From NCBI GenBank assembly GCA_031381325.1, contig JANMXV010000010.1:1-41619 (forward strand): a stretch of DNA of 41,619 nt. The letters are read 5' to 3'. Both the position numbers and the translations under genes were made by a program. Positions within the stretch are counted from its first letter, which is position 1. Every line of letters starts with the position of its first letter. Source of the stretch: Betaproteobacteria bacterium (GTDB lineage: Bacteria > Pseudomonadota > Gammaproteobacteria > Burkholderiales > SG8-41). Of the stretch, positions 2,018 to 40,910 are shown one piece after another. Under the pieces are notes generated by a model. The model saw only the letters and a program-made list of their open reading frames with translations. It did no database searches and was not told the DNA's origin.

Positions 2018-2899
2018 ATGATTCGCCAACACCACTCAATCCTCGAATTCAGTCATGGCCGCTACTTCAAGGTCGCCATACTGTTATGCATTGCGGCGAT
2101 TGGTGCTTATGGCTGTTATGAGCCGCTGACCCTGTATCTAAATCTGCCGATGGTGTATCCCAAGCCTTATGGCGGCACGTGGTTAGGCTACACGCTCGGA
2201 ACCGTTGGCGCCGTACTCATACTTTGGCTCATGCTGTTGGGCGTTCGTAAGCGTAGTTACCGCTCCAACACCGGAAGCGTTCAAGGCTGGACCTCGGCGC
2301 ACGTCTATTTGGGTGTCAGTCTTATCATCGTCGCAACGCTGCACTGTGCGTTCGAGTTCGGCTGGAATATACACACGCTTGCCTACGTGCTGATGATGCT
2401 GGTCATCGCGAGCGGCTTCTTCGGTATTTATTCATACCTGCGTTACCCCGAATACATGACAGCCAACCTCGCGGGTGAGACGCTCGAAACGATGCTGTTA
2501 AAAGTAGCTGATATCGAGCGTAAATCCAAGCGCATCGCGCTTGACTTGCCTGACGAGGTCAATGTCCTGCTCATGAATGCCATCAAACGCTCGGCGGATA
2601 AATCGGCCCTGGGCGGCAGTTTTCGGCGCCAGTTGGCGGGCGTGGACCGCAAGCACCCGATGCGGCTTGCGCGAGATGAATTGCTTAAAATGGGGGCGCG
2701 GTTTACCGGCGCTCAGGCCATGGTGCAAGAGCAGCTGATCGCGGAAATGACGCGGATTATCACGCTCACGGACCGTGTGCGTCGTGATCTTAAGTTGCGC
2801 GCGCTGATGCAAGTCTGGCTTTATTTTCACGTGCCCTTGTCTTTTGCACTGCTTGCGGCGCTGTCCGCGCACGTGATTTCCGTGTTCTACTTCTGGTAG
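2018..2899 (+). CDS. Polytopic inner-membrane protein with His-bearing helices; putative cytochrome b-like quinone-interacting subunit
   Basis: About 5-6 hydrophobic segments with His in or next to TM helices (WTSAHVYLG, ATLHCAF, WLYFHVPLS, LSAHVIS). Start uncertain (TTG 1955 or ATG 2018). Confidence 0.7.
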   Translation: MIRQHHSILEFSHGRYFKVAILLCIAAIGAYGCYEPLTLYLNLPMVYPKPYGGTWLGYTLGTVGAVLILWLMLLGVRKRSYRSNTGSVQGWTSAHVYLGVSLIIVATLHCAFEFGWNIHTLAYVLMMLVIASGFFGIYSYLRYPEYMTANLAGETLETMLLKVADIERKSKRIALDLPDEVNVLLMNAIKRSADKSALGGSFRRQLAGVDRKHPMRLARDELLKMGARFTGAQAMVQEQLIAEMTRIITLTDRVRRDLKLRALMQVWLYFHVPLSFALLAALSAHVISVFYFW

Positions 2900-2917
2900 C
2901 GCGAAGCCGGGCACGCC

Positions 2918-4702
2918 GTGGATATTCAAATCAGCTATGTCAGCGTCAATCGGCGCGGCCAGCCGCAGCGTGATCAGCGCCGCATTGAAGGTCCGTCGAT
3001 TAATGTAGGCCGCGGTTCGCAGTGCCAAATCCATTTGCCCGATCCACGGATCGCGTTACAGCACGCGCACATCAGCGTATCGGAGTCCGGTGCGGCACTG
3101 GAGGCAGAGCCTGGACGTCTGCAGGTCAACGGCCGCGCTGTCGAGAGCGCAAGACTGGCGGTCGGCGACCACATCGAAGTAGGGCCGTATCTTTTGGAGG
3201 TCGAAGCGCCGCCCGAGGGCGTGTCGCTGGCATTGACGGTTACGCTGGTGGTGCCGCTGGCTTCGTTTGGCGGCGACGGCCGCCGTTTCATGTTGCGGCC
3301 GCCGCGCCTGTCCAAGCGCAGGCTTTCCTATATTGGATTCTTCGGCACGCTGTTGCTGTGCCTGCTGGTGCCTCTGTCTCAGGATCTGCTCGGTTATCCC
3401 GCGCTGGCGCCCGCCACGGCGGCGCCTGACAGCACCGGGCATATGGCCGAGCATATGGTTCGTGTACTGTCGGCGAAATTTTTGCCCAGCTTGAATCCGG
3501 GCCCGGTGTCCCGCAGTCACCAGAATTTCGGGTCGGACTGCCGGGCGTGCCACCAGTACCCATTCATACAGGTCCAGGATAAGGCATGCATCGCATGCCA
3601 CAAGACGATCAAGGAGCACGTGCCGGCCGCAGACCTTACGGGGGCGAAAGGGCAGGCGTTTCGCGATACGCGTTGTGCGGAGTGTCACCGCGATCATAAA
3701 GGCGTGCAAATGGCGCCACGGTCGCAGGAGCAATGCGCGGATTGTCACCGTGATGTGCAAAGCGTGGCGGCGAATGCGAAATCGGGAAAAGTCACCGACT
3801 TTGGTTCCGCGCATGCTGAGTTCCGGCTTTCGCTGTTAGATGTCAACAAACCCGGCGCCATGCCACAGCGCGTGCGCCTGAGCACGCCGGCCTCCCCCGA
3901 GATGGTTGAACGCTCGAACTTGAAGTTCGACCACAAGCTGCACATGGACCCGGCTGGCGTGCGTGATCCCAACGGCAAGTACGACCCAGCGGGGACGCGC
4001 GATGCGGCGGGGCGGCCCACGGTGTTGCGCTGCTCGACCTGTCATCAACCGAATGAAGGCGGCCGCCTGATCGCATCCATATCGATGGAAAAGCATTGCC
4101 AGCGCTGTCATTCACTGGCCTTTGAGCCGAAGGTTACCCAGCGGCAAGTGGTGCATGGCGATGAAGCTGAAATAGCAACCATGTTGCGCGAGTTTTATGC
4201 GCGTATCGTTTTGGGTGACGTGCCGCCGGGCGTCAATCCGCCGCTGGATTTGCCGCGCATGCGGCCCGGTGCAGAATTGACTTTCCCGGAACGCTTGCAG
4301 GCTTTGCAGATTGCGGATCAGAAGGCAGACACGGTGTTACGCGAGTTGTTCGACACACGCAAAGTGTGTTCAACATGCCATGAAGTGACCCGAACGGCGG
4401 GCAGCGTGGGTTGGAGAGTTGCGCCGGTGCGCGTTGCAAAGGTGTGGATGCCGCAAGCGCTGTTCAGCCATGCGAAGCACAAGATGGAGGATTGCAGGAA
4501 ATGTCACGATACAACGGGGTCGAAATCGGCTAGCGATATAGCGATGCCCAGCATCGCGGTTTGCCGCGAGTGCCACGTTGGCGCAACGCCGGTTACCGGC
4601 AAAGTGACATCGGACTGCGCAATGTGCCATAAATTCCATGATGGCAGAGACTATTGGCACGGCGTGATGCAAGCGCAGATGTTGCCCGGAGGAAAAAGAT
4701 GA
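2918..4702 (+). CDS. FHA-like domain + single TM + periplasmic decaheme cytochrome c
   Basis: N-terminal FHA-like INVGRG...QHAHI...VNG...GDHIEVGPY; TM IGFFGTLLLCLLVPL after KRR; ten CxxCH (CRACH, CIACH, CAECH, CADCH, CSTCH, CQRCH, CSTCH, CRKCH, CRECH, CAMCH). Confidence 0.88.
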   Translation: MDIQISYVSVNRRGQPQRDQRRIEGPSINVGRGSQCQIHLPDPRIALQHAHISVSESGAALEAEPGRLQVNGRAVESARLAVGDHIEVGPYLLEVEAPPEGVSLALTVTLVVPLASFGGDGRRFMLRPPRLSKRRLSYIGFFGTLLLCLLVPLSQDLLGYPALAPATAAPDSTGHMAEHMVRVLSAKFLPSLNPGPVSRSHQNFGSDCRACHQYPFIQVQDKACIACHKTIKEHVPAADLTGAKGQAFRDTRCAECHRDHKGVQMAPRSQEQCADCHRDVQSVAANAKSGKVTDFGSAHAEFRLSLLDVNKPGAMPQRVRLSTPASPEMVERSNLKFDHKLHMDPAGVRDPNGKYDPAGTRDAAGRPTVLRCSTCHQPNEGGRLIASISMEKHCQRCHSLAFEPKVTQRQVVHGDEAEIATMLREFYARIVLGDVPPGVNPPLDLPRMRPGAELTFPERLQALQIADQKADTVLRELFDTRKVCSTCHEVTRTAGSVGWRVAPVRVAKVWMPQALFSHAKHKMEDCRKCHDTTGSKSASDIAMPSIAVCRECHVGATPVTGKVTSDCAMCHKFHDGRDYWHGVMQAQMLPGGKR

Positions 4703-6543
4703 GATGGATTATTGCTTTGATGATGGCTGTCACGCTGACAGGATGTGGCGGCGGTGCTGGTGGCGACGGGGGGCCGACAGTGGCGGCGGCAGCGGCAGCG
4801 CCGGGTTGCAGCGGCGGTTGCTCCGCGGCGACGCCCACTGCACTGACGATTGCCGAGGTTAACCGGATACTGAGTCAGGCGGTGCAGGAGGCGCAGGCAC
4901 GCGGCGCGCTCGGCACGATCGCGGTGGTGGACCGTTCCGGCAATGTTCTGGCTGTGTTCCAAATGACAGGTGCGGCGGCTACGTTCACGATCTCCGGCGG
5001 GCGCGGCGTGGTGGGCGGACTCGAAGGCGTAAGTATCGTGCGGTCCGAGTACGCCGCCATCAGCAAAGCGATCACCGGCGCCTACCTGTCCTCTGAAGGC
5101 AACGCATTCTCAACGCGAACCGCAAGCCAGATCGTGCAGGAAAATTTCAATCCGGGCGAGATCGGGTCGCCGGGCGGACCGTTGTTCGGCGTGCAGTTTT
5201 CTTCGCTCTCGTGTTCCGATGTCGTCGCGACCGGCGTTACGCCGGGGCCCAAGCCCTCCCCGCTGGGTCTCGCGGCGGATGCCGGTGGTTTGCCGCTCTA
5301 CAAGAACGGCATTGTGGTGGGCGGCATCGGTGTGATCGCAGATGGACTGTACGGCCTCGACCTCAACGTTGGCAATATTGATCAGGATGCGGATGAACTG
5401 ATCGCGGTCGCCGCTGCGCGCGGGTTCGATGCGCCGGCCAATCGTCGCGCCGACCGCATCACTGCCGATGGGCGGACATTCCGCTACGTAGACTCGGAAG
5501 CCATCCTATCGAATCCCGCGGCGGCGCCGGCTGTTCCAGGTTCGGGTGCATTGATTACCGTCCCCGCCTACAAGCCGGTGGCGGCGGTGACTGCCGGCGT
5601 GGCGTTCAGCACGGCCGCATCCGGTTTTCGCGCCGATACCACCACCGCGGCGTTTGCGGGTCTGAATGCCTATGTGCTTGACAACGGGGCAGGTGTCAAC
5701 CGCTTTCCGCCCATTGCCGGTACCGATACTTTTCTGACGGCAGCGGAAGTCACGCGCATACTCGCCGAGGCAATAAAAATCGCGAATCGTGCGCGCGCGC
5801 AGATTCGCCAGCCATTGGGAACGCCGGCGCAGGTGACCATTTCGGTGGTGGATACCAATGCCGCAATCCTTGGGGTGATCCGCACCCCGGATGCCCCGGT
5901 ATTCGGCACGGATGTCGCAGTACAGAAAGCGCGATCCGCATTACTTTTTTCGAAGGCGAATACGGCTGCCGCGTTGAATGCGCTCGGCGCGCCTGTTAGC
6001 GGTTATGTGACCAACATGCAGGCACTGATAGGCGGCGCCTTGACCAACGGTGTGGCCTACAGCAATCGTGCGGTCGGCAATCTCGCGCGCCCTTTTCTGC
6101 CTGACGGCATCAACGGCAGCGGACCCGGCCCGTTGTCGAAGCCTTTTGCGCAATGGAGCCCGTTTGCGGACGGTCTGCAACTGGACTTGGTGCAGGCGAA
6201 AATCGTTGGCAATATAGTTGCAGGAACCAACACCGGCCCTTGTAACCCGATTCCGGCGGTTGCCAACGGTATTCAGATATTTCCCGGCAGCGTGCCGATT
6301 TTCCGCGGTGCTCAACTGGTAGGTGCGATTGGTATTTCAGGCGATGGCATCGATCAGGATGACATGGTTGCCTTTCTCGGGCTTGCGAACGCCGGCATTG
6401 CGCTGGGCACCGGCATCGCGAACGCGCCGGCTTCGCAGCGCGCTGATCTTATTACGGTGCCTGGCGGACAATTGCGTTACGTGAACTGTCCGGTTGCTCC
6501 ATTTCTTGATACCACTGCGACGAATGTTTGCAATGGAATATAA
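4699..6543 (+). CDS. Lipoprotein with two GlcG/HbpS-type heme-binding domains
   Basis: Signal peptide II MRWIIALMMAVTLTG-C. Twice-repeated family motifs: IAVVDRSG...AISKA...GGLPLYKNGIVVGGIGV and ISVVDTNA...AVQKA...PGSVPIFRGAQLVGAIGISG. ATG overlaps the upstream stop (ATGA). Confidence 0.82.
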   Translation: MRWIIALMMAVTLTGCGGGAGGDGGPTVAAAAAAPGCSGGCSAATPTALTIAEVNRILSQAVQEAQARGALGTIAVVDRSGNVLAVFQMTGAAATFTISGGRGVVGGLEGVSIVRSEYAAISKAITGAYLSSEGNAFSTRTASQIVQENFNPGEIGSPGGPLFGVQFSSLSCSDVVATGVTPGPKPSPLGLAADAGGLPLYKNGIVVGGIGVIADGLYGLDLNVGNIDQDADELIAVAAARGFDAPANRRADRITADGRTFRYVDSEAILSNPAAAPAVPGSGALITVPAYKPVAAVTAGVAFSTAASGFRADTTTAAFAGLNAYVLDNGAGVNRFPPIAGTDTFLTAAEVTRILAEAIKIANRARAQIRQPLGTPAQVTISVVDTNAAILGVIRTPDAPVFGTDVAVQKARSALLFSKANTAAALNALGAPVSGYVTNMQALIGGALTNGVAYSNRAVGNLARPFLPDGINGSGPGPLSKPFAQWSPFADGLQLDLVQAKIVGNIVAGTNTGPCNPIPAVANGIQIFPGSVPIFRGAQLVGAIGISGDGIDQDDMVAFLGLANAGIALGTGIANAPASQRADLITVPGGQLRYVNCPVAPFLDTTATNVCNGI

Positions 6544-6544
6544 G

Positions 6545-8749
6545 ATGCAAAACCGCCCGCTGTTGCCCGCGTTGGTGCTGACGATGTTCGTTGGATGCCT
6601 GTCAGGACAGCTTTGCGCCCAAGTGCAGCAACCAGAGAACGCTGCAACGCCAGTCCCGTCTGCGGCTGATCGTTATCTGCTGGATGCATGGATATCGAAA
6701 TTCGCGCCTGCGTTTTCAAGTTCGGCCGATGCGCGTTATCTATTGCATGTGGAGGTTGCCGAGGTTCTGATTTACGATAAGCCCAGCGCCAGTGCGTTGG
6801 TGGTGGGACGCTTGGAACAAGGTATTGAAGTAGAAGCCGACCTCAAAACCGGGAATTGGTACCGCATAAAACGCGCTTCTGGTGAAGCGGGTTGGGTGTT
6901 GAATACGACGGTCGTCACGGGTGCGGTAATTTCGGTGCGGCCTTTCCCCGCTGATCGTCGTATCGCGTACGAAGCGGGGGCTGTAAATCCGCGCGTACCG
7001 CAGTCTTTGCCGCCGGATAAACTTGCGGAGCAGACAGAAGCCAGTAAGGCGGAGACGTCCCGGATTGATCGCCAGCGGCCTCAGGGAACAACCATTGAGC
7101 CTAGATTTCCGCTTATCGATCCGTCGCGTGTTGAACCCCCATCACCGCTTTATCGCAGCGAAGAAATTCCGATTCGGGACCGCTGGCGTATTGTCAAATC
7201 GCTGGGCTTGCTTCCCTACAAGCCCCTTGACCCTTACAACCCGAACGTACTCAAAGGCGATCTGCCTGTACTGGAATCGGTACTGGGTAAAGACTGGTTT
7301 TTTAATCTGGCTGCGGTGTCCGACACGCTGATTGAAGCGCGTCGCTTGCCTACGCCAACCGGTGCGCAGTCCACCCTTAATCCAGGATCGAATGGCACGT
7401 TTGGGCGCGGGCGCCAGACGACGCTTGCGGAAACGGGCATTGTCAGTCTTTCGCTGATTAAGGGCGACACCACCTTCAGGCCCCCCGATTACGAATTCCG
7501 CTTCGTGCCTGTGTTCAACTTCAACCGTACCATGACTCAGGAAGTGCGTGCGGTAAACATCAATCCCGCTGCCGGGCCGGATCGCAACGACAATTTCTTT
7601 GGTGTGCAAGAACTCTTTGTAGACAAGCACTTACGTGATGTATCCACCCGTTTCGATTTTGACAGTGTGCGGGTGGGCATTCAGCCGTTTACCGCGGATT
7701 TTCGTGGTTTCCTGTTTCTGGATCAGCCTTTCGGCGTGCGCTTGTTTGGCACACGCGACAACAATCAGTGGCAATACAACGCGGCGTGGTTCAGGCGCTT
7801 GGAGAAAGATACCAACAGCGGTTTGAATGATGTCGGCAAACGTCTACGTGCGGATGACCTATTCGTATTTAACCTGTACCGTCAGGATTCCTTCTTTGTT
7901 CCCGGATTCACTTCTCAAGGCATCATTCTCCACAATCGCAATCGCGAAGGGGATCGCCCCGATTTTTACAACGCCAATGGATTCCTCGAGCGCCCGGCGG
8001 TATTTGGCAGCGGACGCCCACACAATTACGACGTGACTTATCTCGGATATAACGGAGATGGTCACATCGGCAAATGGAATATCACGGCATCCGCGTATTA
8101 CGCTACCGGCACGGACGACCGCGGGATGTTCTCGGGCCGGCGGGAGAGAATTGGCGCCAAGTTTGGCGCACTCGAAATCTCGCGCGACTTCGACTGGATA
8201 CGCCTGCGTGCGAGCGGATTGTATGCGTCCGGCGACAAAGACCCATACGATGGCAAGGCACAGGGCTTCGATGCGGTACTGGAAAATCCGCAGTTTGCGG
8301 GGGCTGATACCAGCTACTGGATTCGACAGGCGGTGCCCTTAATCGGTGGCGGTGGCGTCGCGCTATCCATGCGTAACGGCGTGCTGCCGTCACTGCGTTC
8401 TTCGCGTGAATTCGGCCAATCGAACTTTACCAATCCGGGGCTGCACCTGTTTGGCGTGGGTGCGGATTTCGACGTCAAGCCGGGACTGCGCGTCATTAGC
8501 AATGTCAATTACCTGGAGTTCGATAATCTATCTTCCCTTGCTGTGCTGCGTAATCAGCGGTTTAGCAGTACAAAGATTGGCATCGACGTTTCAGCGGGCG
8601 TGCAGTACCGCCCCTACTTTACGCAGAACGTGGTTATTAATGCATCCGTGGGTGCGTTGTTCCCCGGCAGGGGGCTGCGTGAAATTTATGGAAACGGCTT
8701 CGATTCCATCCAATACTCAGCACTCGTCAATGTGCTATTGACCTTTTGA
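6545..8749 (+). CDS. Outer-membrane beta-barrel protein with an N-terminal bacterial SH3 (SH3b) domain
   Basis: Sec signal; SH3b-like IYDKPSASALVVGRL...GNWYRIK...EAGWV; many alternating aromatic/polar beta-strands; C-terminal Phe (YSALVNVLLTF). Confidence 0.75.
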   Translation: MQNRPLLPALVLTMFVGCLSGQLCAQVQQPENAATPVPSAADRYLLDAWISKFAPAFSSSADARYLLHVEVAEVLIYDKPSASALVVGRLEQGIEVEADLKTGNWYRIKRASGEAGWVLNTTVVTGAVISVRPFPADRRIAYEAGAVNPRVPQSLPPDKLAEQTEASKAETSRIDRQRPQGTTIEPRFPLIDPSRVEPPSPLYRSEEIPIRDRWRIVKSLGLLPYKPLDPYNPNVLKGDLPVLESVLGKDWFFNLAAVSDTLIEARRLPTPTGAQSTLNPGSNGTFGRGRQTTLAETGIVSLSLIKGDTTFRPPDYEFRFVPVFNFNRTMTQEVRAVNINPAAGPDRNDNFFGVQELFVDKHLRDVSTRFDFDSVRVGIQPFTADFRGFLFLDQPFGVRLFGTRDNNQWQYNAAWFRRLEKDTNSGLNDVGKRLRADDLFVFNLYRQDSFFVPGFTSQGIILHNRNREGDRPDFYNANGFLERPAVFGSGRPHNYDVTYLGYNGDGHIGKWNITASAYYATGTDDRGMFSGRRERIGAKFGALEISRDFDWIRLRASGLYASGDKDPYDGKAQGFDAVLENPQFAGADTSYWIRQAVPLIGGGGVALSMRNGVLPSLRSSREFGQSNFTNPGLHLFGVGADFDVKPGLRVISNVNYLEFDNLSSLAVLRNQRFSSTKIGIDVSAGVQYRPYFTQNVVINASVGALFPGRGLREIYGNGFDSIQYSALVNVLLTF

Positions 8750-11700
8750 TGAGAATCCTGGCCGTAATTTTGCTGCTGTTTGCTGCTTCGATCGTCAGCT
8801 TGGCGAACTCACCTTCACCCTCTACGGAAGAGCCGGAAAGTAGCCCTGCTGCGCCAGAGAAGCAGACGCAGGCCGACGCCGATAGAAAATCGATGGGCTG
8901 CGTCACCTGTCATACCGCATCGGATCGTCACACGATGCATGCCAATCCGGCCGTAGTGCTTGGCTGTACCGATTGTCATGGCGGCAATGCAACGGTGGAA
9001 AAATTGGCTGGCTCAGAGTACGGTAGTAAGGACGAACAGGCCAACAAGGCCTATTTGGCTGCCATGAGCAAAGCGCACGTGATGCCGCGTTTTCCCATGG
9101 ACTGGAAAACACCCGCGTCGGCGAATCCAGAAGGTTCGTATACGCTGCTCAATCGCGAAAGCCCTGCGTTTGTACGATTCGTCAATCCGTCCGACTATCG
9201 AGTCGCGCGCGAGGCCTGCGGGGCCTGCCACCTTCCAGTGATTCAGGCTGCGGAGCGCAGCCTGATGTCGACCGGAGCGATGTTGTGGAACGGCGCCTCG
9301 TACAACAACGGAATTCTGGATGACAAACGGGGTGTGCTCGGCGAGGCCTATACCCGAACGGGCGAGCCGGCCACTATAAAGAATCCAGTCAAGCCGGACG
9401 ATTGGCTCACGCACAAGGGAATACTCCCGCAATTGTTCCCCTTGCCGGCTTGGGAAACGGTTCCGCCGGGAGACATATTTCGCGTGTTCGAGCGCGGTGG
9501 CCGGGTGATCAGCAGTCAGTTTCCGGAAGTGGGCCTGCCCAACAGCAGCGGCAAGCTGCAAGTGCTGGATGAACCAGGCCGCCCCGATATCAAGCAATCC
9601 AATCGCGGGCCTGGTACGGGCGGGCGTATTGCGGTTCCCGTCATCAACATTACCAAGACCCGCCTGAACGATCCGGTTATGTGGTTCCTCGGCACCAACG
9701 ACCAGCCGGGAGACTATCGTTCGTCGGGTTGCGCGGGGTGCCATGTAATCTATGCCAATGATCGCGATCCTGCGCGTTCCGGGCCCTATGCGAAATACGG
9801 TAACGACGGTAAAACGATCACTGCGGATCCGACCATACCGAAAGACAAACCCGGGCATCCGCTAAAACACGAATTCACGCGTTCAATACCGTCTTCGCAG
9901 TGCATGATCTGCCACATGCACCAACCGAATATATTCGTCAACAGTTTTTACGGCTTTACGATGTGGGACTACGAGTCCGATGCCCCCTCGATGTGGCCGG
10001 TAAAGCAACGCTATCCGACGGACGAGGAGCGCCGCAAAATATTGGAGCGCAATCCAGAGGCGGCGGCAGTGCGCGGGAAGTGGGGCGATGCGGAATTTCT
10101 GAAGGAGGTCTCCAAGCTCAACCCGACACTCAAGGATACGCAGTTTGCCGACTATCATGGTCACGGCTGGAATTTCCGCGCCATCTTCAAACGGGATCGC
10201 AAAGGCACCCTGCTCGATAAGGATGGCAATCCGGTGTCTGACAACGATCCGGACAAATTTAATCCGAAAAACCCGAAAAAGGCTGTGCATCTCACGTCGA
10301 TTCATCTGGACGTCGGCATGCATTGTTCAGATTGCCATTTCGCCCAGGACTCCCACGGCAACGGGCATATCTATGGCGAGGTGGCTGCTGCAATTGAAAT
10401 AGAGTGCGCGGATTGTCACGGAACGGCGGGGCGTTACCCGACGCTTTTCACCTCCGGCCCTGCCGCACGACCGGGCGGCACCGACATGAGCCTGATGCGC
10501 ACGCCCGACGGCCGGAAGCGCTTTGAGTGGAAAGACGGCAAGCTATTCCAGCGCTCCGTGATGTTTCCCGACAAGGAGTGGGAGATGTCGCTGGTGAAGG
10601 ATTCGGTAAATCCAAAGCATCCGCGCTACAACGCCAAATCCGCGCGCGCCAAGCTGGTTGCGAAAGGCGACTTTGATAACTACGCGCAACGCTGGGGACT
10701 CGGCGTCCCGGAGAACAATCGCGCGCATGGCGATGACAAGATGACTTGCCAGACTTGTCACACCTCATGGACCACCAGTTGCTCCGGATGTCACTTGCCC
10801 ATCGAGGCCAACGAAAAGACCGAACGCCACCATTATGAAGGCGGATTCACGCGCAATTACGCCACCTACAATCCGCAAGTGGTACGCGACGACATGTTCC
10901 ACCTTGGCCGTCATGGTCCGGTAAAGGGTGGCAAGATTACGCCGATACGTTCCTCCTCGGCGCTGGTGCTGTCTTCCACCAACGCCAATCGCGAGAAAAT
11001 TTACATTCAGCAGCCGCCCACCGCGGCGAGCGGATTCTCGAGCCAGGCATTTGCGCCGCATTATCCGCATACCGAGCGCAAAACCGAAACCAAGACCTGT
11101 TCCGATTGTCATGTATCTGCCGACAATGATAACAACGCCATCATGGGGCAATTGCTGTTGCACGGCACCGGCTATATCGGGCTGCTCGGTTACAACGCAT
11201 GGGTGGGCGAGGAAAAACATATTGAAGCGGTGCAGGTGACGGAGTGGGAGGAGCCGCAAGCCGTGATAGGCAGTTATCTTCACCGCTACGCCTACCCCGA
11301 CTGGTATGCCGCACATCTCAAAGTCAGTCGCAAGTTGTCTGAGGCGCACGATCATACGACTGCGGGACGCGCTGCCTGCTTGCAACTACGGGGTGAATAC
11401 CTTTATGTGGCGGAAGGGCCTGGCGGCATGCGCGTCTACGACGTTGCTTCGATTGCAAACAAGGGCGTATCCCAGCGCATCATTTCCGCACCGTTTTCGG
11501 CGCTTGGTCAAAATACGCATATCCCGAGCAAGAATGCGACCTGTGTCGTGTTGCCTACTACCCAGCCGATTGCGCCGCTAAAGAATCAGGGCGACAAGAT
11601 GCGTATCGTCAACCAGGAGCAGCCGTTTCACCCAATCTACAACTATGCATTGATTACGGATGCAGAGGAGGGGCTGATTTTGGTGGACGTGAATACGCTG

Positions 11701-12516
11701 CAAGATGGCGATCCGCGCAACAACTTTCTCAAGCGTGCGCTGACCTGGGATGGGAATGGGGTACTGAAAGGCGCACGGCACATTACGATGGGCGGCTCGT
11801 ATGTTTACATTACCGCGAACGCAGGGGTTGTTATCGTCAATCTCAAAAGTCCTCTCAAACCCGTGGTTGCGGCAGTGATTCCGCTCAAGGGTGCGCGCTC
11901 GACTGCGCTGCAGTTTCGTTATCTGGCTGTTACCGACGACACGGGATTTCGCATGATCAACGTCACTATCCCGGAGCGGGCAACACTCGTGGAGTCCGCA
12001 TTTGTGCCACTCGCCGACGCCAATCGCATTCACCTTGCGCGCACTTACGCTTACGTAGCCGCGGGCAAGGAAGGGCTCGTGATCGTCGATATCGAAAAAC
12101 CGGAAAAGCCGCGGGTCTACATGAAGTTCACGGCGGACGGCACGCTCAATGACGTGCGCGACGTGACTGTCGCTTCGACGAATGCGTCTGCTTTCGCCTA
12201 TGTTGCCGACGGCAGCAACGGACTCAAAGTTATCCAACTTACGGCGCCAGACACGCAGCCAAAATTTTATGGTTTTAGTCCCGATCCCAAACCACAGGTG
12301 ATTGCGTGGCGTAAAACACGAACGCCGGCGTTGTCGCTGTCGCGCTCACTCGAACGTGATCGCGGAGTCGATGAAACCGGCGGGCAAGTTGCCGTGTTTG
12401 GACGCATCGGCTCGCGGCCGCTTAATCTTGAGGAGCAACGCAAAATGTACCTCAAGCCCGATGGTACGCCATGGACAGTACGAGACAACCCTGAATCTCA
12501 TCAGGTAAAGCCATGA
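8749..12516 (+). CDS. Large secreted decaheme cytochrome c with a C-terminal LVIVD-repeat beta-propeller
   Basis: Sec signal; ten CxxCH (CVTCH, CTDCH, CGACH, CAGCH, CMICH, CSDCH, CADCH, CQTCH, CSGCH, CSDCH); about 7 LVIVD-type blades (YLYVAEGPGGMRVYDV, YAYVAAGKEGLVIVDI, FAYVADGSNGLKVI and others). TGATG coupling to the barrel gene. Confidence 0.88.
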   Translation: MRILAVILLLFAASIVSLANSPSPSTEEPESSPAAPEKQTQADADRKSMGCVTCHTASDRHTMHANPAVVLGCTDCHGGNATVEKLAGSEYGSKDEQANKAYLAAMSKAHVMPRFPMDWKTPASANPEGSYTLLNRESPAFVRFVNPSDYRVAREACGACHLPVIQAAERSLMSTGAMLWNGASYNNGILDDKRGVLGEAYTRTGEPATIKNPVKPDDWLTHKGILPQLFPLPAWETVPPGDIFRVFERGGRVISSQFPEVGLPNSSGKLQVLDEPGRPDIKQSNRGPGTGGRIAVPVINITKTRLNDPVMWFLGTNDQPGDYRSSGCAGCHVIYANDRDPARSGPYAKYGNDGKTITADPTIPKDKPGHPLKHEFTRSIPSSQCMICHMHQPNIFVNSFYGFTMWDYESDAPSMWPVKQRYPTDEERRKILERNPEAAAVRGKWGDAEFLKEVSKLNPTLKDTQFADYHGHGWNFRAIFKRDRKGTLLDKDGNPVSDNDPDKFNPKNPKKAVHLTSIHLDVGMHCSDCHFAQDSHGNGHIYGEVAAAIEIECADCHGTAGRYPTLFTSGPAARPGGTDMSLMRTPDGRKRFEWKDGKLFQRSVMFPDKEWEMSLVKDSVNPKHPRYNAKSARAKLVAKGDFDNYAQRWGLGVPENNRAHGDDKMTCQTCHTSWTTSCSGCHLPIEANEKTERHHYEGGFTRNYATYNPQVVRDDMFHLGRHGPVKGGKITPIRSSSALVLSSTNANREKIYIQQPPTAASGFSSQAFAPHYPHTERKTETKTCSDCHVSADNDNNAIMGQLLLHGTGYIGLLGYNAWVGEEKHIEAVQVTEWEEPQAVIGSYLHRYAYPDWYAAHLKVSRKLSEAHDHTTAGRAACLQLRGEYLYVAEGPGGMRVYDVASIANKGVSQRIISAPFSALGQNTHIPSKNATCVVLPTTQPIAPLKNQGDKMRIVNQEQPFHPIYNYALITDAEEGLILVDVNTLQDGDPRNNFLKRALTWDGNGVLKGARHITMGGSYVYITANAGVVIVNLKSPLKPVVAAVIPLKGARSTALQFRYLAVTDDTGFRMINVTIPERATLVESAFVPLADANRIHLARTYAYVAAGKEGLVIVDIEKPEKPRVYMKFTADGTLNDVRDVTVASTNASAFAYVADGSNGLKVIQLTAPDTQPKFYGFSPDPKPQVIAWRKTRTPALSLSRSLERDRGVDETGGQVAVFGRIGSRPLNLEEQRKMYLKPDGTPWTVRDNPESHQVKP

Positions 12517-13841
12517 CAACACTGTATAAATTGCTGATGATTGTTGCCATTGCCGGCCTGTTACAGGCCGCAGCCGCCCATAGCGCAGCGCTGTTGCCGC
12601 AGTACGCACACGACAAGACGCTCGGTGTAGGCAGTTGCGCCAGCAGCTTGTGTCACGGCGCCATAGAAACCTGGAGGGATTCCAATGTGTTGCAGAACGA
12701 ATATGTGACATGGTCACGCTCGGACAAGCACGCTCGGGCCTATGCGGTGCTGCTGAACGACAAGTCAAAAGAGATCGCAAAAAGACTGGCATTACCCAAG
12801 CCAGCGCATGAGAGCGACCTGTGCCTTGATTGCCATACGCACAATCCCAAACCGGCGCAGCGTACTCAAGGCTTCCAGATCGCCGACGGTGTTGCCTGCG
12901 AAGCATGCCACGGGCCTGCGGAGCGTTGGGTCCGGAGTCACGTCGAGACCGGCGTGACGCACGCGAACAACGTGGCGCGCGGCCTGTATCCGACCGATGA
13001 CGACGTGGCGCGCGCGCGCTTGTGTTTGTCTTGCCATTTGGGCACTAAGGACAAATTTGTTACCCACAAAATCATGGCGGCAGGGCACCCGCGCATGAGT
13101 TTTGAGCTGGATACGTTCACACAAATTGCGCCTGCACATTTCAGAATTGATGCAGATTGGCAGCGGCGTAAGGGCAACTGGAATGACGTGCGCGCTTGGG
13201 CAATCGGTCAAGCGGTTGCGGCTCAGGAACTGTTGGCACTCTTGCAAGGCCCGCGCGGGCGTGACGGACTTTTTCCTGAGCTGGTGCTGTTCGATTGCCA
13301 TTCATGCCATCACCCCATGGCCGACAAGCGTAATACAGCGGCGCGGGTCGGCGCGGGGCCGGGATTTGTTCGCCTGAACGACGCAAACCTGCTCATGTTG
13401 CGGCAGATAGTGCGCCGTGTGGTTCCGGCAGAAGCGGCGGCGTTCGCACAACAGGTCGCGCAACTGCACAAGGCCGTTGCCAGCGGTAGCGACGCCCTCG
13501 CGCAGGCGCGCGTTGTCGAACACCTGATTGCAGCAATGATTTCCAAAATTAGCGCCCATGGATTTTCCGGTGAAGATTTAAAGGCAATTATGCTTGGACT
13601 GATTGACGACGGCCTTGCCGGTCAATACAGTGACTATCAAGGCGCCGAACAGGCGGTAATGGCCGTGCAGAGCGTCGCCGACCTCATGGGCAGGCACAAG
13701 CTGTTGCGCACGCAGCCGCTAAAGCCCATGATTAAACGATTGCTGGCAGTGGTTTCCCAAGATGAGAAATATCAACCGGCTGCATTAAGCAAGGTCTTGC
13801 GTGAACTTAAGACGAGCGTCGAGACGGGGACGAACAAATGA
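12513..13841 (+). CDS. Periplasmic c554-family-like multiheme cytochrome c (5 heme motifs)
   Basis: Sec signal ending AHS-A; CASSLCH (CX4CH), CLDCH, GVACEACHGP, CLSCH, CHSCH; helical C-terminal half. Confidence 0.85.
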   Translation: MTTLYKLLMIVAIAGLLQAAAAHSAALLPQYAHDKTLGVGSCASSLCHGAIETWRDSNVLQNEYVTWSRSDKHARAYAVLLNDKSKEIAKRLALPKPAHESDLCLDCHTHNPKPAQRTQGFQIADGVACEACHGPAERWVRSHVETGVTHANNVARGLYPTDDDVARARLCLSCHLGTKDKFVTHKIMAAGHPRMSFELDTFTQIAPAHFRIDADWQRRKGNWNDVRAWAIGQAVAAQELLALLQGPRGRDGLFPELVLFDCHSCHHPMADKRNTAARVGAGPGFVRLNDANLLMLRQIVRRVVPAEAAAFAQQVAQLHKAVASGSDALAQARVVEHLIAAMISKISAHGFSGEDLKAIMLGLIDDGLAGQYSDYQGAEQAVMAVQSVADLMGRHKLLRTQPLKPMIKRLLAVVSQDEKYQPAALSKVLRELKTSVETGTNK

Positions 13842-16240
13842 GCGATAGCGTCCGTATAGCCATTATCGGATCAGGGCCGAGCGGCCTGTCCTGCGCAGCG
13901 CACGCGGCGGAACTCAATGTGCCGCACGTGTTGCTGGAGGCAGAGGAACATCCTTCGCATACCATATTCCGCTATCAGAAGGGCAAGCACGTGATGGCGG
14001 AGCCGGGGATTCTGCCGTTGCGCAGCCCCATAACGTTTGCGGCCGGAAAACGCGAAGCAATCCTCAACAAGTGGGATGAAGAGGTCGCGAAATACAAAGT
14101 TGATGTTCGATACCGTTCGGCGGTGACTTCAATCGCCGGCGCCAAAGGCGCTTTCGAGATCAAGACGGCCGCAGGGGATACCTACAACGCGGAACACGTG
14201 GTACTGTGCATCGGCTTGCAGGGCAATATCCGCAAGCTTGGTGTGCCCGGCGAAGACCTTGAGCGCGTGCAGTACCAGCTCGATGATCCGGACGAATACA
14301 ACGGCGAAGTGATTGTCGTGGTCGGCGCCGGGGATGCCGGCATCGAGAACGCGCTTGCGCTTGCCGAAAACAACCGCGTTATTCTGATCAACCGCGTGGA
14401 CGAATTCCCGCGTGTCAAACAGGGCAACATCGACCTGGTGACTGCTGCAATCCACGACGACAAGATGGAGTGCCGCTACAGCACCTCCGCGATCAAGGTG
14501 GAAGCCGTCGAAGCAGAAAGCAAGCCCTTGTTTTTCACCGCGCAGACGCCGCGGGGTGTCGAGAAGATCGCGTGTGATCGCGTCATCGCAAGGCTGGGCG
14601 CGATCCCACCCCGCAAGCTGGTTGAAAATTTTGGCGTGCAGTTTCCAAACCAGACCATGGAAGCGGTGCCGCAGGTGTCGGCAACCTATGAATCAAACGT
14701 GCCTGGTCTTCACGTCATTGGCGCACTGGGCGGCTACCCGCTCATCAAGCAGGCGATGAACCAGGGCTACGAGGTGGTGGAATACATACTCGGCAATGCA
14801 GTGGAACCCGCCGACGAATCCCTGTTGAAGGCCAAGTTCAAAAATTTCAAGCGTGCGAAAAATGTGTCTGAAGCGCTTGCGCTGGTGCAAGCCAATGTGC
14901 CGCTGTTCAAAGATCTGACCACGCTGCAGTTGCGCGAGTTCATGCTGGACAGCGAGGTGCTCGCACCCAGGAACGATGAAGTGATCTTCAAGAAAGATGA
15001 CTATACCAATTCGTTTTTCTCGGTCGTGGATGGCGAAGTTACGGTCGAAGTGCCCGGCGAGGACGGTAAGCGGCAGACCGTTACTCTCAAACGCGGCCAG
15101 TTTTTCGGGGAATTGGGTTTGCTGTCCGGACGGCGACGCTCGAACACGGTGCGCGCGGGCGCAAATTGCGTGCTGATTGAAACGCCGCGACGTTCGATGC
15201 TGAAGTTGCTCGCGAGCATCGAGTCGGTGCGGCGCCAGATCGACGAAACCTCTCTGCGCCGCGCGGTGCGTGTGCATATCGCGCCGTTCGTGTCGGAAGC
15301 AGACATGGACGAAATGCTCAAGGGCGCAACGATCAAGAGTTTTGCCGCGGGGCAGACGCTGTTCAAGGAAGGCGACGAGGCGGACGGATTGCATCTCATC
15401 CGCCGCGGCTCGGTTACCATTTCGCGCACGCTTGGGGGCAAGGAAGTCATAGTGGCATATATCGCGGCCGGCAACTATGTCGGCGAAATGGCGCTGTTGT
15501 CTTCCAATGACCGCCGCTCGGCAACGGTGCGCGCTGCGGTCAATTGCGAAACCATTCTGCTGTCGGCCAAGGCCTTCAATGAAGTGATCAGCCGCAATCC
15601 GGCACTGCGTAGCGGCATGCAGACACGCGTCCGGGAGCGGCTGTCAAAAGACGCGCAGCGCGAAGCGGAACCCGACAGCGGATCCGGGGGGCTGATCAAC
15701 TTCCTGATCGGGCAGGGGCTCGGCGAGAGCACGGACGTTTTGCTGATAGATGAGAGCCTATGCGTGCGCTGTGACAATTGCGAGAAAGCATGCGCCGATG
15801 TGCATGACGGGACGTCGCGTCTGGATCGCGAGGCGGGTCCGACCTTTGCAAACATACATATTCCGACTTCATGCCGGCACTGCGAGAATCCGCATTGCAT
15901 GAAAGATTGTCCGCCGGATGCGATTCACCGGAATCCCAGCGGCGAAGTTTTCATCAGCAACACCTGTATCGGCTGCGGCAACTGCGAACGCAATTGCCCG
16001 TACGGCGTGATTCAGATGTCGCAGGTGAATCCCAAGCGGCGCGCGCCCAGCCTTTTGGCATGGCTGACGACTGGATTTACCACCGAACCCGGACGTGAAG
16101 CGCACTACCACAATGAGGAAATGGGCAAGAAGGCGGTGAAGTGTGATATGTGTAAAGACTTGTCGGGCGGCCCGGCGTGCGTGCGCGCCTGTCCTACCGG
16201 CGCTGCAATTCGCATCAATCCCGAAAAATTTATTGCCTAG
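13838..16240 (+). CDS. TrxR/YpdA-like FAD/NAD(P)H oxidoreductase fused to two cNMP-binding domains and a DmsB/NrfC-like 4x[4Fe-4S] domain
   Basis: GSGPSG (FAD), GAGDAG (NAD(P)H), YESNVPGLHVIG; cNMP cassettes FFGELGLLSGRRRSNTV and YVGEMALLSSNDRRSATV; Cys motifs CVRCDNCEKAC, CRHCENPHCMKDCP, CIGCGNCERNCP, CDMC...PACVRACP. No signal peptide. Confidence 0.9.
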   Translation: MSDSVRIAIIGSGPSGLSCAAHAAELNVPHVLLEAEEHPSHTIFRYQKGKHVMAEPGILPLRSPITFAAGKREAILNKWDEEVAKYKVDVRYRSAVTSIAGAKGAFEIKTAAGDTYNAEHVVLCIGLQGNIRKLGVPGEDLERVQYQLDDPDEYNGEVIVVVGAGDAGIENALALAENNRVILINRVDEFPRVKQGNIDLVTAAIHDDKMECRYSTSAIKVEAVEAESKPLFFTAQTPRGVEKIACDRVIARLGAIPPRKLVENFGVQFPNQTMEAVPQVSATYESNVPGLHVIGALGGYPLIKQAMNQGYEVVEYILGNAVEPADESLLKAKFKNFKRAKNVSEALALVQANVPLFKDLTTLQLREFMLDSEVLAPRNDEVIFKKDDYTNSFFSVVDGEVTVEVPGEDGKRQTVTLKRGQFFGELGLLSGRRRSNTVRAGANCVLIETPRRSMLKLLASIESVRRQIDETSLRRAVRVHIAPFVSEADMDEMLKGATIKSFAAGQTLFKEGDEADGLHLIRRGSVTISRTLGGKEVIVAYIAAGNYVGEMALLSSNDRRSATVRAAVNCETILLSAKAFNEVISRNPALRSGMQTRVRERLSKDAQREAEPDSGSGGLINFLIGQGLGESTDVLLIDESLCVRCDNCEKACADVHDGTSRLDREAGPTFANIHIPTSCRHCENPHCMKDCPPDAIHRNPSGEVFISNTCIGCGNCERNCPYGVIQMSQVNPKRRAPSLLAWLTTGFTTEPGREAHYHNEEMGKKAVKCDMCKDLSGGPACVRACPTGAAIRINPEKFIA

Positions 16241-18680: not shown

Positions 18681-18695
18681 TTTGTAGGAATGACG

Positions 18696-19073
18696 ATGGC
18701 AAAAATACTGTTGGTTGAAGACAATGAGATGAATCGCGACATGCTCTCGCGCCGGCTAATGCGCAAGGGCTACGAGGTGCTCATCGCGGTCGATGGCGAG
18801 GAAGGCGTGAGAATGGCCCGGTCGTCGAAACCGGACCTGATTTTGATGGACATGAGTTTGCCGGTGATCGACGGGTGGGAGGCGACCCGGCAGATCAAAG
18901 CCATGGTTGAATTGCAGACGATCGGGATCATTGCGCTTACCGCTCACGCGATGGTACAGGACAAGGACAAGGCACTTGCTGCGGGCTGCGATGACTTCGA
19001 CACCAAGCCGGTCGATATCGAGCGGCTCACGCAAAAAATCGAAGCCTTGCTCACAAAAGGATCTGCGACGTGA
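18696..19073 (+). CDS. Single-domain response regulator (DivK/CheY-like)
   Basis: ILLVEDN, DLILMDMSLPVIDG, IIALTAHAM, DDFDTKP; AGGA RBS before ATG 18696. Confidence 0.93.
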   Translation: MAKILLVEDNEMNRDMLSRRLMRKGYEVLIAVDGEEGVRMARSSKPDLILMDMSLPVIDGWEATRQIKAMVELQTIGIIALTAHAMVQDKDKALAAGCDDFDTKPVDIERLTQKIEALLTKGSAT

Positions 19074-22572: not shown

Positions 22573-22643
22573 AGCGTATCCTAGTATAATGAGTTTGTAA
22601 TTCAGGTATTGCTGGGCTGTCAAATGTTTCTCTTGGATTTAAT

Positions 22644-40291: not shown

Positions 40292-40900
40292 TCACGATGA
40301 ACCTTCAAACGTCCGCAACTCTTCCACAGTATTGATATTACTGAACGCCTCCGCCTCATCATCAAACCGCACTTCCGCCACCTTAAGTACGGCATACCAA
40401 GCATCAATCTTGCGCCCGCCGTTCTCTAGAAATGTCGTCAGTCCTAGCAGCACCGATTTGCGGCACAGACAGAAAACCGGATGCGGCTGATCGCCGGTGC
40501 GCGCGACGGCAAGGTCGGCTTGCTTCGCATTCAGCACCGCGTATAAGCGCTCGATCAAATCCAGTGGCAGAAAAGGCGAGTCGCAGGGAACGGTGGCGAT
40601 CAAATCGTGTGTTGCAGCAGACAAGCCGCGATGCAACCCCGCAAGCGGGCCAGCGAAGCCGGCGATGTCATCCGGCACAACGTGATGGCCAAACTTTGCG
40701 TACTCGTTGAGATTCTGATTGGCGTTGATCAGCACTTCATCGACTTGCGGTGAAAAGCGCTCAAGCACCCATTGCACCATGGGCTTGCCGCGCAGCAGCT
40801 TGAGTCCTTTGTCGACGCTGCCCATGCGCCGGCCCTGGCCGCCGGCTAGGATGACGCCGGTTATTGGTGAGGCGTGAGACGTGACGCGTGAGGCGGTCAT
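40292..40900 (-). CDS. mobA: Molybdenum cofactor guanylyltransferase
   Basis: LAGGQGRRMG..DKG, GPLAG, VPCDSPF, HPVF, FSNINT. Confidence 0.95.
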   Translation of the reverse strand: MTASRVTSHASPITGVILAGGQGRRMGSVDKGLKLLRGKPMVQWVLERFSPQVDEVLINANQNLNEYAKFGHHVVPDDIAGFAGPLAGLHRGLSAATHDLIATVPCDSPFLPLDLIERLYAVLNAKQADLAVARTGDQPHPVFCLCRKSVLLGLTTFLENGGRKIDAWYAVLKVAEVRFDDEAEAFSNINTVEELRTFEGSS

Positions 40901-40910
40901 TTCGCCGACG

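Follow-up and report, generated by a model that had tools for sequence, protein, structure and literature searches.

What might a bacterium do with a cluster of seven genes whose products together appear to hold 25 hemes, four iron-sulfur clusters and a flavin, and which also include an outer-membrane barrel and a lipoprotein? The cluster (genes g1 to g7, all on the plus strand) occupies positions 2018-16240 of a 41,619-nucleotide stretch (contig JANMXV010000010.1, positions 1-41,619), which is called the window below; the source genome assembly consists of 887 contigs. A first-pass annotation, made from the sequence alone, took it to be a trans-envelope electron conduit gated by a cyclic nucleotide monophosphate (cNMP). 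Our answer differs at the outer membrane: the cluster would be a cNMP-gated chain that carries electrons from NAD(P)H to the periplasm and there feeds a conserved decaheme-propeller protein, a reading to which we give somewhat less than an even chance. More firmly, the seven genes form a conserved unit with its order kept across phyla, and a core of g7, g1 and g2, with or without g6, works as a separate module that is found without g3, g4 and g5. The seven genes are:

g1, 2018 (ATG) to 2899, plus strand: inner-membrane protein, putative diheme cytochrome b
g2, 2918-4702, plus strand: cytoplasmic FHA domain, one transmembrane helix and a periplasmic decaheme c domain
g3, 4699-6543, plus strand: lipoprotein of repeated DUF336 (GlcG/HbpS/EfgA-like) domains
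g4, 6545-8749, plus strand: predicted outer-membrane beta-barrel of 18 strands, preceded by an SH3-like domain at the N terminus and a disordered linker
g5, 8746 (TTG) or 8749 (ATG) to 12516, plus strand: secreted decaheme c domain fused to an LVIVD/YVTN beta-propeller
g6, 12513-13841, plus strand: periplasmic pentaheme c with a C-terminal helical half that lacks heme
g7, 13838-16240, plus strand: cytoplasmic protein with an FAD/NAD(P)H domain, a pair of cNMP-binding domains and a ferredoxin domain for four [4Fe-4S] clusters

Read directly from the sequence, the open reading frames and their junctions bear out the tightly packed, co-directional arrangement that the first-pass annotation had described. 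Start and stop codons overlap as ATGA at 4699, 12513 and 13838 and as TGATG at 8747-8751, g3 and g4 are separated by one base (TAAgATG at 6541-6547), and 18 nucleotides lie between g1 and g2. A second possible start for g1, a TTG at 1955, lies upstream of the ATG at 2018. A scan for promoters and terminators was uninformative, giving 3 promoter-like sites where 7.2 would be expected and 16 terminator-like sites where 16.7 would be. The annotated number of hemes, 25, also held. There are ten CXXCH motifs in g2, ten in g5 and four in g6, which has in addition one CX4CH motif. Of the g2 orthologs, 73 of 75 retain all ten, as do 48 of 49 orthologs of g5; the four of g6 are retained in 51 of 51 orthologs, and the CX4CH residues C42, C47 and H48 are at least 95% conserved among 52 aligned g6 sequences. 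As the motifs are conserved among orthologs they are not chance occurrences, and the count of 25 heme sites is sound. Pfam domains found above cut-off were FHA, Cytochrome_C7 and c3 in g2, HbpS-like in g3, SH3_3 in g4, LVIVD in g5, Cytochrome_C554 in g6, and Pyr_redox_3/2, two copies of cNMP_binding and a Fer4 dicluster in g7; an NCBIfam scan was in accord with these calls.

The conservation of the cluster was followed from g2. A profile search gave g2 relatives in at least 298 species-representative genomes. From these the 80 best loci were taken with their flanks and compared by tblastn with all seven window proteins. The complete set was present in 44 of the 80, in the order and strand of the window in 41 and with g7 first in the other 3. 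Most of the remaining 36 loci stop at a contig or locus edge directly past the last matched gene. Five loci have sufficient flanking room for the missing genes: three (L016, L075 and L077) have the core plus g6 without g3-g5, one (L063) has g7-g1-g2 alone and one (L069) lacks g3. The gene pair g1-g2 is adjacent in 77 of the 80 loci. Median ortholog identity ranged from 71% for g5 through 63% (g7), 58% (g4), 57% (g3), 56% (g6) and 49% (g1) to 38% for g2.

As a reciprocal check, one sample of 401 genomes of the same order was searched separately for g5, g2 and g7. The three genes were found in 21, 27 and 26 genomes, respectively. All 21 genomes with g5 also have g2 and g7, and the g7 genomes are the g2 genomes minus one (G028), which is also without g5; 5 of the 26 genomes having both g2 and g7 are without g5. 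None of the 374 genomes that lack g2 had g5 or g7. That the genes travel together in other genomes, as an operon reading implies, was thus seen both in the 44 complete loci and in the order sample. Within the genus of the window only 7 of 20 other genomes have g2, and the cluster is therefore an accessory trait. Carriers are spread over Burkholderiales, Usitatibacteraceae, Lysobacter-like bacteria, Steroidobacteraceae, Methylococcales, Moraxellaceae, Alphaproteobacteria, Vicinamibacteria and one Nitrospira, and include the cultured Duganella guangzhouensis FT80W, Duganella sp. SG902 and Tahibacter harae P2K. The carriers come from freshwater, soil and sediment. Window DNA was matched in eight sequencing runs, every one of DNA and from two studies; at least half of the sampled words were present in six runs of sediment or freshwater-sediment metagenomes (two studies).

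Given this conserved unit, we asked what each protein could contribute, beginning with the cytoplasmic donor. The g7 protein has no signal peptide, two GxGxxG dinucleotide motifs and no CxxC in residues 1-330. Its flavin part belongs with Pyr_redox_3/2 and is of the YpdA/TrxR type lacking the redox disulfide; it is not an FNR-type FAD/NAD(P)H dehydrogenase, such that its role would be analogous to that of NOX although the fold family is different. Relatives in the PDB are YpdA/Bdr, PKA/PKG regulatory domains and HycB. Sixteen cysteines fall into four groups (residues 642-652, 679-691, 710-720 and 769-785) and are invariant or nearly invariant in 17 orthologs, which gives room for four [4Fe-4S] clusters, the number first annotated. 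Between the flavin and iron-sulfur parts lie the two cNMP-binding domains (PF00027, 138.5 bits in two stretches). These were checked for the phosphate-binding cassette motif, which we take to be Gly-Glu ... Arg-x-Ala-Thr. Motifs of the form Gly-Glu ... Arg-x-Ala/Asn-Thr are present at residues 424-437 and 549-563, with G424, E425, T437 and T563 invariant in 17 aligned rows. The two domains called at first thus both retain their phosphate-binding motifs, and both sites look competent. Overall, the g7 sequence fits an NAD(P)H-oxidizing iron-sulfur flavoprotein.

The neighbouring inner-membrane protein, g1, has five transmembrane helices predicted by a transmembrane scan and a basic, helical cytoplasmic insert of about 120 residues (141-262). 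The description of g1 as histidine-rich was overstated, as it has only nine histidines; of more weight is the invariance of five of them, two spaced pairs included. These pairs, H95/H109 in the third transmembrane helix and H271/H285 in the last, are each 13 residues apart, invariant in 31 aligned rows and at least 95% conserved in an alignment of 75 rows; H119 is invariant as well. A positive loop (R77-K78-R79) and the large basic insert set the topology, which would put one histidine of each pair near each membrane face. This geometry fits two stacked b-hemes across the membrane, and heme binding is predicted on that ground. Family scores were mixed. The window protein scored 17.5 bits with Pfam Ferric_reduct (PF01794, cut-off 28), whereas 15 of 31 orthologs matched cytochrome b561 (PF01292, best 4e-7) and 3 of the 31 matched PF01794; the nearest ESM Atlas cluster bears the automatic name 'ferric reductase like'. 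A g1 profile run against PDB sequences found no relative, only coiled-coil noise on the cytoplasmic insert. As the scores conflict in this way, we name no subfamily and call g1 a putative diheme-b-type transmembrane carrier. In complex prediction, g1 paired with residues 615-800 of g7 scored 0.56, against 0.00 for the best of three controls, at least 84% of contacts agreed between runs and the partner had a predicted local distance difference test score (pLDDT) of at least 72. The mark used is passed by 58 of 80 solved complexes and by 2 of 110 mismatched pairs, and scores of 0.60 or less at that mark belong to only 7 of the 80 solved complexes and to both passing mismatches. Hence, g1 and the iron-sulfur domain of g7 may dock.

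The next component, g2, carries an N-terminal FHA domain (30.3 bits, cut-off 20.7; Yop-YscD_cpl, 37.1), a transmembrane helix at about residues 135-159 and ten hemes on the periplasmic side. The FHA domain is closest to those of mycobacterial FhaA and GarA. The canonical residues contacting phosphothreonine we take to be Gly-Arg and Ser, and of these Gly-Arg is present in 73 of 73 g2 orthologs. Some orthologs have no FHA domain, their match beginning at residue 192. For one genus of small genomes (1.7-2.1 Mb), all seven genomes in the order sample (G026, G090, G141, G185, G228, G269 and G310) have g2 and g7 and six have g5; in these the g2 match begins at residue 192 or 193, the FHA part being missing or diverged. 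The pentaheme g6 matches Pfam Cytochrome_C554 with 40.7 bits and, weakly, the cytochrome c554 structure 1bvb (0.0029).

The remaining three proteins make up the module that can be absent. The AlphaFold2 model of g4 (pLDDT 77.4, the barrel mostly 85-95) has 18 strands within residues 251-733, and the C-terminal residue of the protein is aromatic. Foldseek placed AlgE first (E 1.4e-17, TMt 0.67), followed by OprD/Occ channels; a search of PDB sequences with g4 found nothing. Among 35 orthologs, 14 have the SH3 domain and 2 match Pfam Alginate_exp (1.8e-4 or weaker), a family that the window protein itself does not match. The MtrB/PioB comparison that had been proposed for the barrel matched none of the 35 orthologs at E ≤ 1, and the barrel comes out as resembling a transporter unrelated to MtrB, an outcome which the first-pass annotation had itself listed as telling against its reading. 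Modelling therefore makes g4 look like a solute channel of the AlgE, then OprD/Occ, kind rather than a cytochrome sheath, although a predicted barrel of 18 strands may be compatible with some form of heme-protein contact. The lipoprotein g3 has the lipobox LTGC, and PF03928 scores 71.3 bits in three stretches. Its nearest solved relatives are the formaldehyde sensor EfgA (6bws, 5.7e-6) and then HbpS (4bmw). The sequence contains no histidine and has conserved cysteines at 172, 515, 597 and 611. The label heme-binding lipoprotein thus survived as regards the lipoprotein, whereas heme binding is merely the name of the Pfam family.

The g5 protein has a Sec signal peptide and no lipobox. A decaheme c domain of about 750 residues is followed by a seven-bladed propeller of about 400 residues at the C terminus (LVIVD, 50.6 bits). 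The propeller was modelled with a pLDDT of about 90 and matches 1l0q with Z 30.7 and a root-mean-square deviation of 2.2 over 278 residues; the model as a whole has a mean pLDDT of 55.5, with most of residues 1-760 under 50. A Tyr-His-Gly-His-Gly-Trp stretch at residues 470-475 is invariant. Neither the single g5 sequence nor a g5 profile gave a usable match among PDB sequences. Members of the g5 family, which has no name, are common among Verrucomicrobiota, Planctomycetota and Pseudomonadota. Two assignments were rejected. The likeness of the propeller to hydrazine synthase beta (Z 25.8) is meaningless among dozens of tied propellers, and a match to ExtM (NF040943, 61.2 bits against a cut-off of 800, over a short stretch) denotes similarity of heme motifs and not membership. 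In one locus (L072, 13329-19316) g4 and g5 read as one frame of 1996 residues; this apparent fusion was set aside, as it comes from a frameshift near the end of g4 by which the last strand of the barrel is replaced, in all likelihood an error in the assembly of a long contig, and it gives no evidence of contact between the two proteins. Long open frames around g5 were also seen in G297 (1989 residues) and in G218 (1840 residues, with one TGA).

The median identity of g5 (71%, against 38% for g2 and 49% for g1) argues for constraint beyond the needs of a mere wire. Together with a dedicated solute-type channel and a ligand-binding lipoprotein, this conservation points to a periplasmic enzyme, and g5 would be the protein at which the chain ends, probably with a catalytic role.

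The scheme that we propose for the cluster is conveniently divided into a core and an accessory module. In the core (g7, g1, g2 and g6), (i) g7 would oxidize NAD(P)H on its FAD, (ii) the electrons would pass through the four [4Fe-4S] clusters of g7 to the two b-hemes of g1 and so across the membrane, and (iii) g1 would hand them to the ten c-hemes of membrane-anchored g2 and g2 to the pentaheme g6, acting as a shuttle. The cNMP domains of g7 would open or close what would otherwise be an energy-wasting drain of NAD(P)H, and g2, through its FHA domain, would offer another point of docking or control on the cytoplasmic side. The accessory module (g3, g4 and g5) would be the site of electron use, in which g5 is the terminal redox protein, the g4 barrel passes substrate or product through the outer membrane and the g3 DUF336 lipoprotein binds or presents a small ligand. 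Gene content, conservation, co-occurrence, the cofactor motifs and the barrel fold as predicted stand on the data; the outward direction, the gating by cNMP and the catalytic role of g5 are what we infer. Direction is taken to be outward on the precedent of ferric-reductase-type proteins and on the membrane potential: characterized ferric-reductase-domain systems (NOX, FRE and MsrQ) move electrons outward, and membrane potential favours electron flow in that sense. A bolder form of the proposal is that the cluster is a quinone-independent, cNMP-gated export chain resembling NADPH oxidase, that a new decaheme-propeller enzyme, with an AlgE-like channel and a DUF336 lipoprotein of its own, reduces a periplasmic substrate, and that the core has been reused in at least five phyla, including in the ptd and nonaheme cytochrome (NHC) clusters compared below. 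This we advance only tentatively, as a possibility that falls well short of being the probable one.

Several points weigh against electron export to a periplasmic g5 enzyme. No usable model was obtained for the heme part of g5 (pLDDT < 50 over most of it), which has no solved relative, and it is for its conservation that g5 is called an enzyme. At the position of the phosphothreonine-contacting Ser, the FHA domain has Ala in 46 of 73 g2 orthologs, Ser in 3 and another residue in 24. The g1 protein lies under the Ferric_reduct cut-off and has its better matches among cytochrome b561-type proteins. As characterized members of that type react with quinones, this likeness leaves room for a quinone link. 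The predicted docking of g1 with g7 adds little. The cyclase genes beside the cluster, which might have supplied the nucleotide from within the conserved unit, were dropped from it because the same-genus genomes that read past g7 gave no match to them there. Finally, known electron-uptake clusters have beta-propeller proteins beside their outer-surface cytochromes (PMC5815863), and LVIVD repeats are described as cell-surface associated in the account of the Tenderiales uet cluster; by these associations g5 might sit outside the cell.

A surface location of g5 is what the conduit reading of the first-pass annotation would call for. In such a conduit g2 and g6 would bridge the periplasm, g4 would pass a heme segment or a mediator, and g5 and g3 would work at the cell surface on minerals, humics or electrodes. 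One operon does bring together a barrel, a lipoprotein and 25 hemes, and the authors of a preprint on a look-alike cluster, ptd, likewise take that cluster for a putative porin-cytochrome complex (bioRxiv 10.1101/2023.11.21.568154). The closest match to the g5 propeller comes from an archaeal S-layer, though many propellers lie within a few Z units, and NHL propellers occur beside the outer-membrane cytochromes of Desulfovibrio ferrophilus (PMC5815863) and the Tenderiales LVIVD protein is discussed as surface-associated. Against these likenesses stand the 18 predicted strands of g4, its AlgE/OprD-like model and the unmatched MtrB/PioB models, and also the cytochromes: against the MtrA/DmsE family (TIGR03508, cut-off 192.2 bits) g2 and g6 scored 28.0 and 21.2 bits and are not members, and g5, which lacks a lipobox Cys, had no match to the MtrC/OmcA families at E ≤ 0.01. 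Conservation of g5 is moreover far higher than is usual for surface cytochromes (a comparison made from general knowledge), and the core exists without g3-g5. Hence, we regard a true extracellular conduit as distinctly unlikely. The earlier interpretation is partly supported and may be called half right. Its wire from a cytoplasmic reductant to the periplasm is well supported by the tight core, in which an NAD(P)H/FAD/iron-sulfur protein goes with a membrane protein of diheme type and a decaheme anchored in the membrane, whereas crossing of the outer membrane finds no support and is not a defining property of the cluster.

Electrons could also run the other way, with g5 oxidizing a periplasmic donor such as Fe(II) or reduced sulfur or nitrogen and passing the electrons through g6 and g2 to g1, which would act as a b561/NarI-like quinone reductase, while g7 would link to a cytoplasmic acceptor or NAD(P)+. 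The PF01292 matches of g1 orthologs fit such a role, studied members of that family being quinone-reacting, as does the layout of a four-cluster iron-sulfur protein with a five-helix diheme b protein, which is NarH-NarI-like. Reduced donors are plausible in the sediments in which window DNA was found, and the scheme is close to the Fe(II)-to-quinone proposal that the authors of the Ferrigenium preprint make for an FHA-nonaheme protein (bioRxiv 10.64898/2026.01.22.701106). Flow inward to NAD(P)+ would, however, have to overcome both the membrane potential and the low redox potential of NAD(P), for which few donors should suffice. No quinone-site motif was identified and g2 matched no NapC/NirT model at E ≤ 0.01; a quinone route also finds it hard to explain the dedicated NAD(P)H-type flavoprotein that accompanies g2 in 26 of 27 genomes. 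Taken together, we consider inward, quinone-coupled flow unlikely. Last, the cluster might be mainly a sensor in which the hemes would signal a ligand or the redox state of the periplasm to the cytoplasm, with the FHA and cNMP domains as the output and little electron flux. It has three signalling-type parts (the FHA domain, the two cNMP domains and a DUF336 protein related to EfgA), and a heme-c sensor kinase and cyclases adjoin it in this genome. Those neighbouring genes are not conserved, however, the conserved unit has no DNA-binding, kinase or cyclase output domain, and 25 hemes, four iron-sulfur clusters, FAD and two b-heme sites should exceed the hardware of known sensors. A role mainly in sensing is thus very improbable.

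The signalling genes adjoining the cluster were assigned by Pfam:

16366-18660, plus strand: sensor kinase whose periplasmic domain is Tll0287-like and has a single CXXCH
18690-19073, plus strand: REC protein
19070-20620, plus strand: HisKA-REC-class III adenylate/guanylate cyclase
20671-22623, minus strand: TPR-S cyclase

The CXXCH of the kinase is CLVCH at residue 156, between two transmembrane segments. The cyclases are a possible local source of cNMP for g7 in this genome only. In five genomes of the same genus with readable downstream sequence tblastn gave no match to the signalling block beside g7, and in three of these five DUF1178 lies about 2.4 kb past g7. Cyclase-like matches of 28-33% identity were found near the cluster in 5 of the 80 loci (L028, L082, L032, L068 and L088). 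Some loci have heme-maturation genes (CcmA, B, C, F, H and I types) upstream of g1 and divergent from it, the most widespread of them in 13 of the 80 (L035, L036, L038, L039, L041, L044, L046, L053, L054, L055, L076, L086 and L087); besides these ccm genes no recurring neighbours were found across the 80 loci. In the window itself, two adjoining acetoacetate decarboxylase-family genes (PF06314; 252-1765, minus strand) lie divergently upstream of the cluster. Farther downstream are an open reading frame of 1588 residues lacking a Pfam match (26413-31179, plus strand; GC 0.65-0.66, AT skew about 0.3), a region that has a 348-nucleotide tandem repeat of 2.9 copies at 26922-27935, and MobA-like and FdhD/NarQ-family genes for molybdoenzyme maturation (40292-41597, minus strand), for which no link to the cluster was seen.

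If the core does export electrons from NAD(P)H independently of the quinone pool, it would supply the Gram-negative periplasm with reductant by a new route beside DsbD, MsrQ and quinol dehydrogenases, and would be one of few redox chains under the direct control of a second messenger. How widespread the module is can be seen from the at least 298 species-representative genomes having a g2 relative and from the 26 of 401 genomes of the order sample having both g2 and g7, and the cultured carriers make the cluster experimentally testable. Look-alike modules have appeared in preprints on nitrogen loss and on iron oxidation, and a shared mechanistic frame would help both fields.

How, then, does the cluster compare with systems already described? 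Outer-membrane conduits of the MtrCAB, MtoAB and PioAB kind likewise pair a barrel with decaheme c-type cytochromes in one operon. The MtrB barrel has 26 strands, and the large barrels of this kind (MtrB/PioB) differ from the predicted 18-strand AlgE-like barrel of the window. Electrons enter MtrCAB-type systems via CymA-type quinol dehydrogenases, whereas the window has a dedicated NAD(P)H flavoprotein and a putative diheme b protein. The AlgE and OprD/Occ channels share the 18-strand fold of the g4 model at 12-14% identity, but g4 has no polysaccharide synthesis genes nearby and its neighbours are cytochromes. For the inner membrane the closest parallels are NOX, FRE, MsrQ-Fre, cytochrome b561, NarI and FdnI, which have two bis-His b-heme sites on two helices with a 13-residue spacing, as is predicted for g1. 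Both the NOX logic of a cytoplasmic NAD(P)H flavoprotein donor and the NarH/FdnH logic of a four-cluster iron-sulfur partner are present in the window. In contrast to the FNR-type flavoproteins of NOX-type systems, that of the window is TrxR/YpdA-type and carries cNMP domains and four iron-sulfur clusters; the acceptors of ferric-reductase-domain proteins are O2, Fe(III) or MsrP, whereas the proposed acceptor here is a multiheme c chain, and g1 adds its insert of about 120 residues. Propellers genetically tied to multihemes recur in D. ferrophilus and in the Tenderiales uet cluster. In D. ferrophilus IS5 these are separate NHL beta-propeller proteins found with outer-membrane cytochromes (PMC5815863), whereas the propeller of the window is LVIVD/YVTN-type and fused to a decaheme; the IS5 and uet systems as described have no NAD(P)H, cNMP or diheme-b input.

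The first-pass annotation knew of no named system of this composition, but two recent preprints describe clusters that share core parts. Elbon and co-workers (bioRxiv 10.1101/2023.11.21.568154) report ptdABCDEFG from marine Alphaproteobacteria, Gammaproteobacteria, Nitrospirales and Planctomycetes, in a nitrogen-loss setting and with a function they call 'completely unknown'. Besides a porin and a pentaheme that carries a beta-sandwich, it has two further multihemes (a tetraheme and a decaheme), an FAD/NAD(P) oxidoreductase, a membrane protein resembling ferric reductases and a protein that combines cNMP binding with 4Fe-4S. By the preprint's description, all five part types of the window core are shared, plus a porin. 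PtdC (flavohemoprotein-like) and PtdE (cNMP/iron-sulfur) are separate genes where the window has one TrxR/YpdA-type fusion, g7, and the outer module is the PtdA pentaheme-beta-sandwich with the PtdB porin where the window has the g3 DUF336 protein, the g4 barrel and the g5 decaheme-propeller. The ptd tetraheme is counted by CXXCH, to which g6 of the window adds its CX4CH site, and no FHA domain, such as g2 has, is mentioned for PtdG. The ptd clusters are reported from saline habitats, in contrast to the freshwater, soil and sediment of window-type carriers. The second cluster is the NHC cluster of Ferrigenium straubiae (bioRxiv 10.64898/2026.01.22.701106), which consists of an FHA-nonaheme protein, a neighbour with five transmembrane helices and a 4Fe-4S protein, and was expressed in all conditions of that study. 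Its authors note that the combination of FHA with a multiheme was unreported and of unknown function, and suggest that the protein links Fe(II) oxidation to quinone reduction. Judged by architecture only, NHC and the window share an FHA domain joined by one transmembrane helix to a periplasmic multiheme, the five-helix protein and the [4Fe-4S] protein. The nonaheme has nine CXXCH against the ten of g2, and the five-helix neighbour had no redox motif that its authors could find, whereas g1 has two invariant His pairs. The preprint's description of the NHC cluster includes no barrel, propeller cytochrome, DUF336 protein or pentaheme, and no flavin or cNMP part in the iron-sulfur protein. Our literature searches found no published description of a g3-g4-g5 module or of a fused g7. 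Hence, the cluster is a variant of a recently noticed kind of multiheme module, to which it adds a g3-g4-g5 module and a fused g7 that are new as far as those searches of print extend.

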